Shown here: piece after piece, positions 15,834 through 37,102 of the stretch
Layout of the letters: each line of letters begins with the position of its first letter
How positions within the stretch are numbered: position 1 is the stretch's first letter
Virus record (IMG/VR): IMGVR_UViG_3300028591_000011
Span: 1-64,000 of that record
Reading direction: 5' to 3' (one strand)
Source: a virus
Lineage: Duplodnaviria > Caudoviricetes
Length of the DNA: 64,000 nucleotides
Notes under the pieces: model-generated
Databases searched by the model: none
The model's input: only the letters and a program-made list of their open reading frames with translations
Told to the model about the DNA's origin: nothing
Program-made: the position numbers and the translations under genes

Positions 15834-15873
15834 ATATGTAATAACAGAACCCTAACTGTCTAAAATAGGGATT

Positions 15874-15960
15874 GCGTGGATAGCTCATTGGTAGAGCGGG
15901 AGACAGGCGCATAAAGCGTTTCGGAAGCACTTGAAGATGGTTCGATTCCATCTCCACGCG
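15874..15960 (+). ncRNA. tRNA-like element with intact acceptor, D and T arms but no canonical anticodon arm
   Basis: Acceptor stem GCGTGGA/TCCACGC, D arm GCTC-ATTGGTA-GAGC, T arm GATGG-TTCGATT-CCATC. The 37-nt middle has no standard 5-bp stem/7-nt loop. No encoded CCA. Confidence 0.7.
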
Positions 15961-15966
15961 CGTGTG

Positions 15967-16017
15967 ACTACAGACGTGTAGTAAGTCATATAAAAGTCCC
16001 CGACACTTTTATATGGC
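15967..16017 (+). other. Two adjacent hairpins downstream of the tRNA-like element
   Basis: ACTACA-GACG-TGTAGT (15967-15982) and GTCATATAAAAGT-CCCCGAC-ACTTTTATATGGC (15985-16017). Confidence 0.65.
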
Positions 16018-16091
16018 GCAATTAAGCAGACCTTACTGCACAATAAAGGATTATTAACATTTATTAACTTATTTTATTAACATTAATTATT

Positions 16092-17021
16092 ATGGAAAGT
16101 TCTAAAATTATGATGTTCCCTGAGATGGGGAATAATAGCATTGATCCAAACCTGCTGATGGCTCTTAACAACAACGGTGGTTTTGGTGGTAATAACTGGA
16201 TGTGGATTCTGTTTCTCTGGCTTATCTGGGGATACGGAGGCTGGGGAGGTAACGGCTTCGGTGGAAACGGAGGCAATGGATTCCTCTCTAATCAGATTGC
16301 AAACGATTCTGGTCGTGAGCTGCTGATGAACGCTATCCAGGGTAATCGTGATTCTATTAACAGTCTTGCAAACCTCTTAAACACTGAGGTCAATACTGTA
16401 CAGAATGGTATATTCACACTGAACAATGCTATTACTTCTGTAGGTACTCAGGTAGGCATGAGCGGATTGCAAATTTAGAACGCCATACAGAGTGGTAATG
16501 CATCTATCGCCAGCCAGATATGTCAGTGCTGCTGCGAGAATAGACTTGCTATTGCTAATCAGACTAATACACTGCAGTCTCAGATGGCAGCTAATCACGC
16601 TGCTGCTACACTGCAATCAGCACAGGAGCAGGCTGCTGATCAGCTTGCTGTATGTCAGCAGACCAATACGCTGGCTAATCAGGCTGAGCGCAATACTCGT
16701 GATATTGTTGATGCTATATCTGCTCAGAGTGTTATGATCAACGATAAGTTCTGTGACCTTGAGAAGAGGGAGCTGCAGAATAAGATTGATACTCTGGTAG
16801 CTGATAATGCTCTGTTACGTTCAAATGCAAATAACGCTGCTCAAACTGCATTCATTAACGAGAAATTTAATACTGTTGCTACTGAGCTCGCTGCTATTAA
16901 AGCTTCACAGCCCAATACAATCCCTGTTCAGTGGCCCAATGTTACAGCTGTAAATACTACTCCGTTTGCTGGTGGGTTTTACGCTATGAATAACTGTGGT
17001 TCTAATAGCTTCTGGAATTGA
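16092..17021 (+). CDS. Module gene A: Gly-rich/Trp-rich membrane segment + long Q/N/A coiled coil with CQCCC motif (309 aa)
   Basis: ORFs 16092 and 16584 are joined by a single TAG (16476-16478). Ends TGA. Confidence 0.85.
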
Positions 17022-17024
17022 TTT

Positions 17025-17035
17025 AGAAAGGAGGT
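17025..17035 (+). promoter_or_regulatory. Strong Shine-Dalgarno-like sequence AGAAAGGAGGT
   Basis: Lies directly upstream of ATG 17040. Confidence 0.55.
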
Positions 17036-17039
17036 AATT

Positions 17040-17396
17040 ATGTTTGGTTCTACTAATTATCCATTCAACTTCTCCAACAGAAGGGGAATACCTCTGATCG
17101 AAACTAGTTCTATAAGTGTTACGGCAGATAATGTAGTGATAAACATACCTAATAGATCGTTCAGGTGGTTGAATGATAAGGGTATTATACTACTTAGACT
17201 TAACCAGGCTATTCCCGATGGAACTACAGGTACACTGCCTGTACTGTTCTCATCAAACGATTTTACACAACCGCTTACGAATGTTGGTGGTACAGCTATC
17301 ACAGCAGCTTAGATTCTTGGTGCTGGTGTATATCTTATATACTATGACAAGAATGCTAATCTGATGCAGATGCTTACTACTTAGATTCCAGCTTAA
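17040..17396 (+). CDS. Module gene B: beta-rich hypothetical protein (118 aa)
   Basis: ORF 17040 extends through two TAGs to TAA 17394-17396. Confidence 0.8.
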
Positions 17397-17422
17397 TATT
17401 AACATTAAAACTTTATTAAATT

Positions 17423-17773
17423 ATGGTAGTTATTGAAATGCGGGATGCTGCTTACGATACAGCATTCGACCTTCTTGATGAAGCTAAACATAGCGCAAAG
17501 AAAACAAAGCTTACTCTTTGTGAGCTTGAAGACGCTATGTACGATTGCTATGAAGCATCGAAAGAGAACGAAGACGAGTGGGATAACGAAGACTCTGATA
17601 TGGAGTATCGTAATAGATATTCAACTCGTAATTATCGTCATGACGAATATGACCCAGAAGAATATGAGGATGACGAAGATACGCGTAAGCACGCTTCTAT
17701 GAGAAGAATGTCTCGTAGAGGAATGCGTGGAGGTATGCGTATGCGTCGTAATCGCATGGGACGCTTTGTTTAA
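17423..17773 (+). CDS. Module gene C: acidic protein with an Arg/Met-rich C-terminus (116 aa)
   Basis: Intact ORF ending 'SMRRMSRRGMRGGMRMRRNRMGRFV'. Confidence 0.8.
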   Translation: MVVIEMRDAAYDTAFDLLDEAKHSAKKTKLTLCELEDAMYDCYEASKENEDEWDNEDSDMEYRNRYSTRNYRHDEYDPEEYEDDEDTRKHASMRRMSRRGMRGGMRMRRNRMGRFV

Positions 17774-17780
17774 TGAGCGA

Positions 17781-17796
17781 GGGGGCTACGGCCCCC
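17781..17796 (+). terminator. GC hairpin GGGGGC-TACG-GCCCCC (terminator or stabiliser; no U-tract)
   Basis: Perfect 6-bp stem with a C(UACG)G tetraloop in intergenic DNA. Confidence 0.55.
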
Positions 17797-17817
17797 AACC
17801 TCTTAATACTTACTATT

Positions 17818-18318
17818 ATGTTTTCTACATTGAGAAAAGGAGCTTCTATCTATATACTTGATAGAAGTGCCAGACCAGAAGTAAAAGTAGGTAGCATTGA
17901 TAATGTTACAATGCCTCGTCCCATGTATCCCACATACAATCCTGCTGTTAGTGTAGGTACTAATATGCAAACTGTAGTGGATATTACGGTACGAGTAGGT
18001 GATGAAAAGAAAGAGTTTAGTGTACCTAGCAACTTATCTATACATACTTATGGAGATTATACTTTAAGTGAGAATAAAGAAGCTATGATATCAGAAGTAG
18101 ATTCTCTATTATAGCAAAGTAAGGATGTAATAGATAGTGTTGATAAACACAAAGCTGCTATAACTGCTTACGAAGATATACTTAAGACTTTAAATCCTGT
18201 ATACGCAAGAGAACAGGAACGAGAGTCTAGAATAGATAGCTTATCGTAGTAGGTAGGTGATATGCAGTCAACTCTTAAAAGGTTAGAATCAATATTATTA
18301 AGAAATGAGAACAACTAA
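17818..18318 (+). CDS. Module gene D: beta-rich N-terminus + C-terminal coiled coil (166 aa)
   Basis: Starts 'MFSTLRKGASIYILD' after the hairpin and reads through three TAGs to TAA 18316-18318. Confidence 0.75.
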
Positions 18319-18685
18319 ACACTACAGAAAGTACCAGAGATTATACGGTCCTCACTTTACAAAAGAGTTATGTGACTTTGCAGTATCTTTAATGGAAGAT
18401 GACAAAGGTCCTATAACTCCTATAACTAAACAACAATTAGAAGAAAAGTTAAAAGTGCAGAATATTACCTTAGAGTATAACAAGCTTTATGATGCTGTAT
18501 ATGTAGCAAATATGTGTAAAGCTGATTACTTAGGTAATGCTGTACCTAATAACGATTACAATCTCTGTATGTATGTAAAGAAAACTATAGATGACCCAGA
18601 TGGATATGATGGGCAACCATTCAACCGCTGGATGTCAGATATAGAGGGTATGCATATTCCAGTTGATTGGTCTGAGTTTGTATGA
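18305..18685 (+). CDS. Module gene E: helical hypothetical protein (126 aa)
   Basis: Intact ORF 'YGPHFTKELCDFAVSLM...YVANMCKADY...DDPDGYDG', overlapping both neighbours. Confidence 0.8.
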   Translation: MRTTKHYRKYQRLYGPHFTKELCDFAVSLMEDDKGPITPITKQQLEEKLKVQNITLEYNKLYDAVYVANMCKADYLGNAVPNNDYNLCMYVKKTIDDPDGYDGQPFNRWMSDIEGMHIPVDWSEFV

Positions 18686-19086
18686 CATCTTAGTATATAC
18701 AACTCGGGGACCGTGGTTGGAATGTTCTTATATATTATAATGTAGACGAATACGATTTTGTAGAGATAGTAGATTCTTTAGAGCAAATAGATTGCCCGAA
18801 AAAGGATATGAAGAAAGCACTGAGTGTACTAAAAAGAAAGAACACAGGCTTTACTTTTACAAATACTAACTACAAAATGAGCATCGTGTGTATAGGGAAA
18901 GCTAAGAATATAGGTTAGTTTGTTAATACATGTATACATGAAGCTAAACACGTATAGTCACACATATGTCAATATTATGGTATAAAAGAAGATTCCGAGG
19001 AAGCTGCGTATCTAATAGGGCATTTGGTACATAGAATGTATAAGATGCTTGAAAAGATACTGAGAATGTATGTTAACATTATATAA
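18682..19086 (+). CDS. Module gene F: small zincin-like metallopeptidase (134 aa)
   Basis: ATGA overlap with gene E. HEAKH at 18937-18951 with downstream 'EEAAY'. Three in-frame TAGs, so it is absent from the ORF track. Confidence 0.7.
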
Positions 19087-19087
19087 C

Positions 19088-19606
19088 ATGTTTGACATTA
19101 AAGGTGATAAAATATCTCTCAATACCGAAGACTTAGCTATACCACCGTTTAGAGATCATTACAACAGTGCAAAGGATAAGTCTTCGGCGTTGAAGGAGAT
19201 TGAATACGTAGTATGGCTACATAAATGGAATACTCCATACGAAGCATACCCATTAGAAACAAGGGCTGCTACTGTAGCTAAAGACGTATTTGGAGATAGT
19301 AAATATGTACCTACTGCAGAGGTTAAAGAGTTAGAAAAGCGTTTTATAGAGTTTTAGGAAACGCCTGGAACTAGATTACTTTCAGCTTCATAGACTGCAG
19401 CAGAGGGGCTTATAGCTGCCCTAAACGACTACTCTTAGGGTAACATGGATATAGATACAGCTATAAAGGTTACAAGAATATTAAAAGATGTTGGAAATAT
19501 TGTAAAGTCTCTAGACATTGCTATGAAACAGGCAAGAGCTGAGTAGTTGGAGACGGGTAAAGTAAAAGGTGGCGGTATAATAGGCCGCTACGAAATTCCA
19601 AGGTAA
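19088..19606 (+). CDS. Conserved protein upstream of TerL, putative terminase small subunit (172 aa)
   Basis: Read through TAG to TAA 19604-19606. Helical and immediately before terL; function inferred from position only. Confidence 0.55.
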
Positions 19607-19615
19607 TAAATATTT

Positions 19616-21664
19616 ATGGTAGACTTTAATAAAAAAATATACAATTCTTCAAAATTTTGTAAGCCTGCTGAGTTCTTCAAAGAACATGGATGCTATACTT
19701 TAGCACCCAGAGGCACTACAGATTATAATAACTATTGGGATAGAGAGACAGATAGATGTCTTAACGGATATGTTGCAGAAGATGGAGATGCTATTACTGG
19801 CTACCATTATTTCTATTTAAACTATTGTCCTATCATGAAATTGGTAGAAGAAGAATATACGGATAGATATGGGCAAAAACGCCTAAAGAGAAATCGTGTA
19901 TTTGAATTCCCTAATTTCTGGGACGGTGACTATTACTATTTCAATGCGATAGAAGAGGCTGAGAATGAAGGTAAACATATGGCAGTCCTTAAGTGTAGAC
20001 AAAGAGGTTACTCTTTTAAGGGGGCTAGTATGTTAGTTAGAAACTACGAACTCATCCCAGGGTCTAAGAACTTTGCGGTAGCTTCAGAACAGAAATTCCT
20101 AGTTGGTGACGGAATTCTTACAAAAGCTTGGCAAATAATGGACTTCGTTGACAAGAATACAGACTGGTCAAAACAACGACTTACTGCTACTCGTATGGAG
20201 CGTGTATCTGGATTCAAAGTTAAAGATGAGTTTGGTAAAGAAACTGAACAAGGCTATTTATCTTCCATCACAGGTATTACACTGAAGAATGACCCAGAAC
20301 GCCTTCGTGGTACTCGTGGTAAGCTTGTACTATTTGAGGAAGGTGGTAAGTTCCCGGGTCTTGAAACAGCGTGGCAAATCGAACGTCCTGCTGTAGAAAC
20401 TGACGACGGTGTAGCTTTTGGTTTACTTATAGCATTTGGTACAGGTGGTACTGAAGGTGCGGCGTTCGATGGACTAAAAAATATGTTCTATCACCCGGAC
20501 GCATTTAATGTACTTGGATTCCCTAACATATGGGATGACAATGCAAGTAATACTAAATGTGGATTCTTCTCTCCATCTTACTGGAATCTAGAGAGTAAAG
20601 ACGGATCTTGTATAGATCCAGATGGTAATAGTAAGAAAGATGTCGCTATTGAAAGATTAATAGCTGAAAGAAACAAAGTACGTGACGGCGGAGCTTCGTA
20701 GGAAGCTATAGATAGATTCATATCAGAACGTCCCATGAAGCCTGCAGAAGCGTGCTTGGAATTAGGAAAAAATATATTTCCTAAAAAGCTTTTGATGGAC
20801 CAACTAACTAGAATAAGAACAAACGAAAAGCTTAAAAACATGAAGCATGTGGTTGACTTATTTTGGGATGGAAATGGTATGGTAAAAGCTACAGAAAAGA
20901 AATCTGGCGATATAACAGAATATAAACCTGATAAACGAGATGACAAACCAAGAGGATCAGTAGTTATCTGGGAATACCCAATCCCAGATGCCCCATTCGG
21001 ATTATACATTGGCGGTTGCGACCCATATGATCATGACGAGTCGTTCACTAACTCGTTAGGATCGACGTTTATTTTTAAAAGAGTTAGAGCAGGAGAAGCT
21101 TGGAACGACGTAATCGTAGCCGAATATACGGGAAGACCAGACACAGCCGAAGAGTATTATGAGAATGTACGTAAACTGTTAACATTCTATAATGCTAGGC
21201 TGCTGTTTGAGAATGAACGTAAAGGTATATATCCGTACTTTACAAACAAACACTGTGACTACTTGCTTGCGGATCAGCCAGATAAGATAATTACAGAGAT
21301 ATTTAAAGATAGTCGTGTACAGCGTAGAAAAGGCTGCCATATGACAAAACAAATAAGAGCCTACGGAGAGGGTCTGATATTAGAATGGCTAATGGAAGAA
21401 TATGAGCCTGGGCACTTAAATATAGAAAGGATATACAGTGAACCGTTGCTTGAAGAACTTATAGAAACAGATGGTGTAAAAAACGTAGACCGTGTGATAG
21501 CTCTATGTATGGTAATGATATATAGAGAAGAGTTATATCAAGTAAAGGTGTCAGCTGCAAAAGAAGAAAATAAACAGGTTGAACTCTTCGAGCTACCTTT
21601 GTTCAGTAGACAATGGTTTGCTGATACGTAGCCACAAGACGACATACCGTTATTTAGTTTTTAA
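19616..21664 (+). CDS. terL: Terminase large subunit (682 aa)
   Basis: Walker A-like 'LKCRQRGYS', Walker B 'VLFEEGG', nuclease 'GCDPYD' and 'DRVIAL'. ORFs 19616 and 20735 join at TAG 20699-20701. Confidence 0.92.
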
Positions 21665-21670
21665 CGATAT

Positions 21671-21907
21671 ATGAAAAACATCTGGAAATGGATTAAAGAT
21701 AGTCATAGGTTATAGCATCTACTTGGAGGTATTGCAATAGGTGCGTTATCTTCTGACTGGTATTGTGCAGGCTTAGCAGGAATTAGTACTGCAGGCGCTA
21801 TGGAATTTAAAGATTATTAGTGGGGAGGAAAGCCTGACATTATTGATTTTATAATCACATTGACTGGAGTATTTATTGGATTTGGATTTAAATTTTGGAT
21901 ATTATGA
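21671..21907 (+). CDS. Small membrane protein (78 aa)
   Basis: 'HLLGGIAIGAL...AMEFKDYQWGGKPDIIDFIITLTGVFIG'. Two TAGs; ends TGA. Confidence 0.7.
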
Positions 21908-22155
21908 TAAAGAAGATTTATGACTCTTGGTTTACCAATGCATTATTTGCAACAGGTGCCGTACTTATGGGGTTGTATGGGGATTTCGCTCTTATACCTT
22001 CAGATATTTGTTATGGTGTATTCTTAGGAGCTGCCGGTTCATTTCTTGGTGAGGTAATAAAGAAGTTGACTCTTAAGAGAGATTGGACATCTAAGGGTAT
22101 GATTATAGGAGCCCCAATCGGAGCTATAGCAGGTATGGGTGTGTGTCTTGTGTAA
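21904..22155 (+). CDS. Small membrane protein (83 aa, about 3 Gly-rich TM segments)
   Basis: ATGA overlap with the upstream gene; hydrophobic Gly-rich helices. Confidence 0.7.
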   Translation: MIKKIYDSWFTNALFATGAVLMGLYGDFALIPSDICYGVFLGAAGSFLGEVIKKLTLKRDWTSKGMIIGAPIGAIAGMGVCLV

Positions 22156-36228: not shown

Positions 36229-36480
36229 ATGAAACAGTGGAAAGACGTAGTGCAGTATTCTACTGCAGTTGTATCACTTGTTAGTGGTATTGTGTTGACG
36301 TGCTTTCAGTACTTTGATTCAGGCGATATTACAAATGGAATGCTCGGCTATGTGGCTCAGACGTTAATCTATGCGGCTAGCATCTTCGGAGTCACGATGT
36401 ATTGGAACGGGAAATATAGCGAATTAAAACAATTAGTACAGAATAATGAAAAAAATGCTAACGTGGTTAGCAATTCATAA
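36229..36480 (+). CDS. Putative holin (83 aa, two TM helices)
   Basis: Two hydrophobic helices and a polar C-tail; overlaps a spanin-like gene. Confidence 0.6.
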   Translation: MKQWKDVVQYSTAVVSLVSGIVLTCFQYFDSGDITNGMLGYVAQTLIYAASIFGVTMYWNGKYSELKQLVQNNEKNANVVSNS

Positions 36481-37102
36481 AAATAAGCTCGTAAAGGCCA
36501 TTTGCGGCCTCTCTGTTGGGCTTTTATTGGCTTGGGGTATAAATACAAGCATACAGAATAAAAAGCTGTCAGAAAGCCTAGAAATGGCTTAGAATAACAT
36601 TGAGGCCTATTAGGGTTCCTTAAAGGAATCTTAGTAGGCCAATAATGTTTTAAGGGTGTCATTAGATGAATTGCAAGACCAAAATGATATACTCTTATAT
36701 AGAGTAGATAGTGTTATGAAATAGCATAACATTAAACCAAAACACGTGTATTCTGCTGCAACTCAAACGCAGATGATAGACGTTAGTAATGGTAAGGGGG
36801 TAGGGGGTGATTTAACAGAAATCTTAAAAGACACTGTATACAGTGATACTCTAAAGTATAATGATCTTACCACAATATATTATACTATAGGTAGAGATAC
36901 AGTAAGTATGGATTTAGATATAAAAAACACTCAATACTTGTACCTTTATACAGATAGACAATATAAAAATAAAAAGAGTTTTATAAAAAGACTCTTTACG
37001 TTAGATTTTAAAAAGATCAATAAATATAAATATATATTAGTAAATACTAATGATCTTTTAAAGACTGACGATGTAAGAATAATAGAGATAATAAAGAAGT
37101 AA
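36446..37102 (+). CDS. Putative spanin-like membrane-anchored coiled-coil protein (218 aa)
   Basis: N-terminal TM 'AICGLSVGLLLAWGI', then a coiled coil and a beta-rich C-terminus. Five TAGs. Confidence 0.55.

Follow-up and report, generated by a model that had tools for sequence, protein, structure and literature searches.

A portable late accessory gene cassette with a zincin-like protein in crAss-like and other tailed phages of gut anaerobes

Results

A six-gene cassette lies between the tail-fibre and packaging genes of a crAss-like phage

The DNA analysed here (the window) consists of bases 1-64000 of the IMG/VR record IMGVR_UViG_3300028591_000011, which is 105,735 bp long and carries direct terminal repeats, and the closest named relatives of the phage are cr273_1 and cr272_1, two crAss-like phages of the pig gut (Suoliviridae, Oafivirinae, Buhlduvirus). 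Within the window we find six closely spaced genes, here called A to F, that form a portable, self-contained late accessory unit of gut-anaerobe tailed phages. In this phage the gene order runs from two large tail-fibre genes through A-B-C-D-E-F to a further gene, G, and then to TerL. The features of the region are as follows.

15874-15961, plus strand: tRNA-like gene, a neighbour of the cassette and not a member of it
16092-17021, plus strand: gene A, 309 amino acids (aa), phrog_16490
17028-17034, plus strand: Shine-Dalgarno-like site AAGGAGG, 5 nt upstream of the start of B
17040-17396, plus strand: gene B, 118 aa, phrog_31654
17423-17773, plus strand: gene C, 116 aa, no PHROG match
17781-17796, plus strand: GC-rich hairpin between C and D, 6-bp stem and 4-nt loop, without a T-run
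17818-18318, plus strand: gene D, 166 aa from the corrected start, phrog_28898
18305-18685, plus strand: gene E, 126 aa, Pfam DUF7841, phrog_38431
18682-19086, plus strand: gene F, 134 aa, minimal zincin-like protein, phrog_1365
19070-19606: gene G, 178 aa, between F and TerL
19616-21664: TerL, the packaging gene after G

The late-gene frames are open only if TAG is read as Gln, and a tRNA with a CTA anticodon is present at ~102.8 kb of the genome; in-frame TAG codons number one in A, two in B and three each in D and F, with none in C or E. With TAG read in this way, D and E overlap by 14 nt, E and F by 4 nt, and F and G by 17 nt. An earlier note on this DNA had described six closely spaced genes, the last three overlapping, with a Shine-Dalgarno site and a hairpin inside the block, and this description stands. 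A start for D at 17773 was rejected because all D homologues begin at the Met of 17818; there is therefore no overlap between C and D, and the hairpin is intergenic and follows C. The hairpin was not called by a terminator scan, and both sigma-70 and terminator scans of the region gave background levels only. The motif ATTAACATT occurs in three copies, all of them in intergenic regions of the cassette, at a frequency not above chance for the window.

Codon usage sets part of the cassette apart from its surroundings. The codon adaptation index, calculated against a major capsid protein (MCP) set, is 0.70 for A and 0.65 for C, compared with 0.77 for MCP and 0.46-0.56 for neighbouring genes, and 20 of the 24 Gln codons of A are CAG. 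The capsid-like codon bias that the earlier note ascribed to A is thus borne out.

The same note had given the block a tRNA-like leader of its own, a claim that we do not uphold. The tRNA-like gene scores 45 bits against Rfam RF00005 (tRNA; cut-off 29) and is called by ARAGORN as Leu(taa) at position 39. No defect is seen in the acceptor, D or T arm; the anticodon-arm region spans 31 nt, as against 15 in the model, with 38 nt between the D and T arms and a 7-nt loop, CAUAAAG, that has A rather than U at position 33. Two close relatives (L012 and L021) keep the gene, with a compensatory G-C to A-T change in the anticodon stem, and in the others it is absent or decayed to T-arm remnants. Because most relatives do without it, the tRNA-like gene is not part of the cassette. 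The stretch 15850-15961 takes in, besides the tRNA-like gene, a hairpin motif (CCCTAACTGT..TAGGG) just 5' of it, and this motif too is conserved in the two relatives.

The cassette recurs, in conserved order, in unrelated phages and prophages

A search with A returned 79 IMG/VR loci, nearly all of which keep the order A-B-(C)-D-E-F, down to 37% identity in A. The cassette is also found at ~50 of 80 loci from bacterial genomes and metagenome-assembled genomes, including the isolates Parabacteroides segnis BX2 and P. leei GYB001, whose elements are probable prophages. The co-occurrence check thus upholds the idea of a self-contained, recurrent gene set unlike core head and tail genes, with its order kept elsewhere. 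Carriers span three Crassvirales families, non-crAss Bacteroides phages and Bacteroidales prophages; they include members of the Suoliviridae (cr273_1, cr4_1) and the Steigviridae (cr116_1) and the cultured non-crAss Bacteroides phage C3_41T2LP, and in one prophage (L103) the cassette lies at the prophage end with an integrase adjoining F.

The commoner layout elsewhere is a four-transmembrane (4-TM) protein, a helix-turn-helix (HTH) protein, A, B, D, c, E and F, and homologues of the 4-TM and HTH genes are absent from the genome of the present phage. Gene C corresponds to the 65-100-aa gene c, located behind D in most other phages; with c-type queries included, members of the C family turned up in 73 loci. 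The junction between fibre genes and terminase, which the earlier note took as the site of the block, is correct for this phage, and the cassette is not specific to it: elsewhere it usually stands beside lysis genes.

A-like genes also occur with other partners, in phages of Gram-positive-type hosts. At locus L149 the A-like gene adjoins genes for an r1t-type holin and a CHAP-LysM lysin, and in the cultured Butyrivibrio virus Ceridwen, which also carries B', an A-like gene comes just after the endolysin gene. The partners in this Gram-positive-type variant are a 150-173-aa beta-type protein (B'), an acidic Tyr/Gly-rich protein, a Q-rich coiled-coil protein and a small Cys/His/Asp protein. The A family as a whole comprises more than 7,300 clusters at 90% identity and 1,202 at 50% identity (E<=1e-3), and in the ESM Atlas A falls only in unnamed viral clusters. 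In two further records, Caudoviricetes sp. vir215 (L088) and vir335 (L089), whose host is given in the record as Methanomassiliicoccales, an A homologue (phrog_16490) adjoins a phrog_5302 tail protein and B-F are absent; in vir215 a reverse transcriptase is also adjacent to the A homologue.

The cassette is an accessory unit with freely recombining alleles

The phage crAss001 has no cassette, and its lysis genes gp27-30 directly abut gp31 and MCP. In cr116_1, which belongs to the crAss001 subfamily, exactly this junction between the lysis genes and gp31-MCP holds an insertion made up of a 4-TM gene, an HTH gene and A-B-D-c-F. The absence from one phage and the insertion in the other identify the cassette as an accessory unit and not as part of the core virion or core lysis machinery; nor is it a canonical holin/endolysin/spanin set.

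Its genes differ widely in how they vary. Among 40 close relatives A, G and TerL are 68-93% identical (A alone, 68-85%), with D at 49-81% and C at 38-77%, and in 21 of the 40 the identity of B falls below 45%. B itself comes in two very divergent allele classes among these relatives; all combinations of B class with C/D class occur, and the C and D classes are linked to each other, from which contact between C and D would be predicted. E is missing from 23 of the 40 and so is dispensable. Two of the 40 are without F, and cr273_1 also has no F.

A has a conserved hydrophobic segment and B-E match no characterised family

Searches of the cassette proteins against Pfam, NCBIfam and PADLOC gave DUF7841, in E, as the sole family match. 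A, B, D and E each match a PHROG of no known function, F matches two PHROGs and C none, and PDB sequence and profile searches with A, D, F and G and with profiles of F, B and B' returned nothing significant. Judged by these sequence comparisons, no cassette protein matches a characterised family, apart from the HExxH...E motif of F and the assignment of E to DUF7841.

The N-terminal tail of A carries a conserved DPNLL motif and ends in Gly-Gly just before a hydrophobic segment, the Trp-rich core of which (residues ~35-47) lies between Gly/Asn-rich stretches. This segment is conserved in every A and is the only hydrophobic segment of the protein; many polar positions of A are conserved as well, and the protein ends in a disordered Pro/aromatic tail. 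Residues C146-C148 are invariant in both A alignments. The earlier note had pictured A as a membrane segment plus a coiled coil with a CQCCC motif: the hydrophobic core and the CCC triplet are confirmed, the preceding Cys144 is not conserved, and the long helix is seen in a low-confidence model, the AlphaFold2 (AF2) monomer (mean pLDDT 57), in which residues 35-46 form a helix and residues 137-271 a second, unbroken one. Prediction of A as a complex of three copies scored 0.25 against a mark of 0.42. In a PDB search A showed a faint, non-significant resemblance to HA2 (E 0.75); the lack of significance of this match, the N-terminal position of the sole hydrophobic segment and the absence of a C-terminal anchor place A outside the class I viral fusion proteins.

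B has no Pfam match. The profiles of B and of the Gram-positive-type B' likewise match nothing in Pfam or the PDB, including the BclA C-terminal domain and BxpB-ExsFA exosporium families, and hhalign of B against B' gave a probability of 0.3%. Longer fused forms of B or E were not found, which is weak evidence. C consists of an N-terminal helix, an acidic Tyr/Asp/Glu-rich middle and an Arg/Met-rich tail; the acidic and Arg/Met-rich character, which the earlier note had also given, can be read directly from the sequence. For D, predicted there to combine beta structure with a coiled coil, the AF2 model (pLDDT 79) agrees, with a small SH3/Tudor/KOW-like barrel (residues 1-85) and two long helices. 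The best match of this model in VIA was EF-P domain I (Z 7.6, within the range that the tool calls common), a Foldseek search of the PDB found no match, and a BFVD search returned only uncharacterised phage proteins; as modelled, the structural matches of D reflect a generic SH3/Tudor/KOW barrel. E matches DUF7841 (PF25223) with 95.3 bits against a cut-off of 25.2, over profile positions 7-113 of 114, and an ESM Atlas search with E gave no usable match. None of B-F begins with a signal peptide and lipobox.

F carries an invariant gluzincin-type motif

The HExxH motif that the earlier note saw in F is invariant in 27 F sequences, along with other positions (W13, H86, E87, H90, E106 and G113); H86, E87, H90 and E106 are invariant also in an 11-sequence alignment of F. 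The Glu lies 16 residues after the second His, the arrangement of ligands found in gluzincins. Against Pfam, the F family gave faint matches to MPTase-PolyVal (PF18818; E 0.023), DUF6782 and Tox-MPTase5, each in one of 11 members and none reaching threshold; F of the window itself has no match to Pfam MPTase-PolyVal.

In the Gram-positive-type variant of the cassette there is no HExxH gene. In a small protein found there, Cys, His and Asp residues, arranged in this order, do not vary (n=3): a family of 118-132 aa with an invariant Asp-Cys...His...Asp pattern and no Pfam match is encoded at L149 (9123-9479), L157 (5519-5902) and L165 (5572-5970). From its conserved residues, this protein may be a candidate cysteine peptidase that replaces F. 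The invariant HExxH...E motif of F, taken with the Cys/His/Asp protein of the variant, is consistent with a protease being an integral part of the cassette, and the gene set is consistent with a hydrophobic-anchored coiled-coil product combined with a zincin-type protease. The earlier note had proposed a membrane-anchored, self-assembling fibre or channel with chaperones and a maturation protease; the agreement with the data extends to the anchored product and the protease, and the fibre or channel, the chaperones and any complexes among A-F would be conjecture.

The cassette often lies near lysis genes

In unrelated backbones, lysis genes confirmed by Pfam are found within ~0.5-3.5 kb of the cassette or of an A-like gene:

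L130 and cr4_1: Peptidase_M15_3 near the cassette
L051: Amidase_3 near the cassette
L065: Amidase_2 with PG_binding near the cassette
cr273_1, the closest named relative: GH108 endolysin one gene downstream of the cassette
cr116_1 and L103: DUF5675 near the cassette
L149: r1t holin and CHAP-LysM near the A-like gene

The record annotation of Ceridwen adds a glucosaminidase and a peptidoglycan-binding domain near its A-like gene. By BLAST, at least 19 of 58 A clusters have a lysis-type gene no more than 6.5 kb away, at ~3 kb or less in 18 of them; the count of 19 is a lower bound, given a small BLAST reference set.

Neighbouring genes

G, the best-conserved stretch of the region, finds no match in Pfam or among the PHROGs; it encodes a helical protein with a Gly-rich basic C terminus. 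In several Crassvirales lineages (cr124_1, cr7_1, cr130_1, cr131_1 and Bohxovirus) it stands directly upstream of TerL. It belongs to the packaging genes and not to the cassette, and is a candidate small terminase subunit. We rejected the reading of G as an endolysin, since the 'endolysin' of cr273_1 is encoded by a GH108 gene of its own, located between TerL and the homologue of G. The gap between G and TerL is a variable slot, in which many close relatives (L013, L017, L019, L021 and others) have 1-5 kb of extra DNA; it holds a GH108+PG_binding_3 endolysin in cr273_1 and no insert in the window.

Elsewhere in the window, the interval between TerL and the portal gene (21671-22155) contains two small open reading frames (ORFs) of membrane type (78 and 83 aa, the first being phrog_38535), possibly holin-type genes. 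A 218-aa ORF at 36446-37102, just upstream of tail-related genes, has an N-terminal membrane segment and a probable coiled coil and is a candidate for a spanin-like or lysis-regulator-like protein.

Discussion

A proposed late, membrane-anchored assembly

We tentatively propose that the cassette encodes a membrane-anchored coiled-coil assembly, formed by A with B and C and matured by D, E and the protease F, that acts late on the envelope around lysis and release. We regard this as quite possible, if somewhat short of probable. On this proposal, the amber-suppressor tRNA would permit TAG to be read late in infection, when A would be made in large amounts and seated in the cytoplasmic membrane by its short Trp-rich hydrophobic segment. 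The predicted helix of A, of ~135 residues (~20 nm) and bearing the invariant CCC, may form an oligomeric stalk, with which B and C, products of the highly expressed 5' part of the operon to which A belongs, would associate as partners. D, E and F, which lie behind the hairpin, overlap and are less codon-adapted, may be assembly or maturation factors of lower abundance. F would act as a zinc protease that cuts a cassette protein, the N-terminal tail of A with its Gly-Gly end being a candidate substrate, and the finished assembly would exert its effect on the envelope as the cycle ends, either tuning lysis and release or shielding the lysing cell and its progeny from competing phages.

A function at the host-cell membrane is favoured over a part of the virion because the cassette is portable across backbones and both envelope types, because it often brings its own regulator and an extra membrane protein, and because the hydrophobic segment of A is conserved. 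The spread over unrelated lineages (crAss-like phages, non-crAss Bacteroides phages and phages of Gram-positive-type hosts) argues in particular for a function independent of any virion-specific docking site.

Several observations pull the other way. The adjacency to lysis genes is only about three-fold over a rough estimate of chance, from an incomplete reference set, and in the present genome the cassette lies among structural and packaging genes and adjoins no lysis gene; an amidase-like ORF, judged by the start of its sequence only, is distant, at 98.8 kb. The hydrophobic core of A is short (~11-16 residues) and its flanks are nearly uncharged, which leaves the positive-inside rule uninformative about topology. 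If the stalk of A is periplasmic, the lack of signal peptides in B-F means that not all of them can be its partners. The literature on DUF7841, C3_41T2LP, crAss lysis and spanins, and Ceridwen proteomics yielded nothing on the cassette, and no experiments or proteomes for carriers were found.

Also on this side of the account, the capsid-like codon bias and the fast-evolving, freely recombining alleles of B, C and D fit an appendage on the virion surface. Such an accessory 'hair' or extra fibre would have A as its coiled-coil shaft, B as a variable distal knob, C, D and E as assembly helpers and F as a maturation protease. MCP-like codon usage and a helix of ~20 nm would suit a shaft, allele replacement in B, C and D resembles that of receptor-binding parts, the cassette lies among structural genes both here and in cr4_1, and accessory fibres are known to be dispensable. 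We nevertheless consider an appendage unlikely: every A keeps the strongly hydrophobic segment with its Trp residues; a common docking site is not expected across unrelated backbones with Gram-negative and Gram-positive-type hosts; many cassettes have an HTH regulator and a 4-TM protein of their own; no sequence match to any solved chain was obtained, and hence none to the solved virion proteins of crAss001 among them; and the longer fused forms of B were not seen.

The cassette might instead serve competition between phages, as a superinfection-exclusion or defence/anti-defence module in which A is a membrane effector or barrier, B the variable part that confers specificity and F a protease switch. 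It is moron-like and portable, often has its own regulator and, in L103, sits next to an integrase at the end of a prophage; an arms race is suggested by free recombination and by the deep split of B into two allele classes, and a hydrophobic-anchored protein combined with a protease would fit such a role. We think this rather unlikely, however, as PADLOC gave nothing above noise (the PADLOC-DB 2.0 defence models produced only two chance-level matches, E ~0.01, on the coiled coil of D) and the cassette has no nuclease, NTPase or other usual defence domain. Furthermore, in this phage TAG suppression is required by four of the six genes, and the codons of A are optimised in the manner of late structural genes, which together point to late lytic expression, a poor time for exclusion.

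A bolder reading would make the cassette a new class of envelope machine, shared by Gram-negative and Gram-positive gut-anaerobe phages and built on a proteolytically primed, fusion-protein-like coiled coil. Here the cassette protease (the zincin in Bacteroidales phages, the Cys-His-Asp protein in Firmicutes phages) would remove a propeptide from A at the Gly-Gly before the hydrophobic tip, and the freed, membrane-inserting stalk would, with B and C, remodel or perforate the envelope at release. We offer this as a speculation and, as it stands, a decidedly doubtful one.

A set of head-assembly helpers, with a membrane-bound platform, a scaffold-like acidic/basic C and F as prohead protease, is highly improbable. 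The position just upstream of gp31-like and MCP genes in Steigviridae-type phages, the scaffold-like or internal-protein-like composition of C and the presence of a protease speak for it; against it, crAss001 and many other Crassvirales build heads without the cassette, the cassette occurs with unrelated capsid lineages, and both E and F can be missing, as in close relatives and, for F, in cr273_1.

Least probable of all is a device of the spanin or class I fusion kind, by which the inner membrane would be joined to the outer one, or both ruptured, during lysis. Such a device would fit the N-terminal hydrophobic anchor, long coiled coil, conserved Cys and lysis-gene neighbours of A and its faint, non-significant resemblance to HA2, but is opposed by A-like genes beside Gram-positive-type lysis genes (r1t holin and CHAP-LysM) and in Ceridwen, whose hosts have no outer membrane, by the lack of any lipobox partner among B-F to serve as the outer-membrane lipoprotein, by redundancy with the lipoprotein and TM pair that lies beside the holin, outside the cassette, in cr116_1 and L058, and by the fact that crAss001 manages without the cassette.

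Significance

A is found both in crAss-like phages, a group that ranks with the most abundant human gut viruses, and in phages with Gram-positive-type hosts, and the cassette, carried by many unrelated gut phages, is a sizeable unexplored piece of phage biology. A unit of six to eight genes that stays intact and passes between unrelated phages, with strong late expression and fast evolution of three of its parts, must confer a real advantage. Solving its function could uncover a new step in anaerobes, be it in phage release, in exclusion or in the decoration of particles, and would allow thousands of 'hypothetical' genes to be annotated together. Cultured carriers (C3_41T2LP, Ceridwen and the probable prophages of P. 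segnis BX2 and P. leei GYB001) make the cassette testable now.

Comparison with known systems

The minimal zincins (MPTase-PolyVal, DUF6782 and 'minigluzincin'-type proteins) resemble F in having ~130 aa and HExxH with a Glu 16 residues downstream, as in gluzincins, and the F homologue of C3_41T2LP was annotated by its depositors as a 'PolyVal metallopeptidase'. F differs from them in reaching no Pfam cut-off and in having no PDB sequence match.

Accessory genes of lysis cassettes, such as those for the T4 holin T with its antiholins RI and RIII and for the i-spanin Rz, are like the present cassette in their late expression and frequent adjacency to holin or endolysin genes, in combining an N-terminal hydrophobic anchor with a large Cys-bearing coiled coil, and in being dispensable and sporadic. 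Sequences and profiles show no resemblance, however; A is roughly twice as long as Rz, and the cassette has at least six genes, including a zincin, and no lipoprotein partner; its carriers keep separate lysis genes, and A-like genes occur also in phages with Gram-positive-type lysis genes.

Head and collar fibres (phi29 gp8.5, T4 fibritin and the head fibres of crAss001) share with the cassette a long coiled coil, high late expression, a non-essential role and variable distal parts. Unlike them, the cassette has a membrane-like hydrophobic segment in A, moves between unrelated backbones, comes with its own regulator, membrane protein and protease, and gives no PDB sequence match.

Morons and lysogenic-conversion cassettes of the lysis/integrase junction, finally, are comparable as autonomous units, often with their own regulator, that are inserted at module boundaries and are present or absent between close relatives. 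The cassette described here differs from them in being a late, TAG-recoded and highly expressed operon of a lytic crAss-like phage rather than a gene expressed from a prophage.

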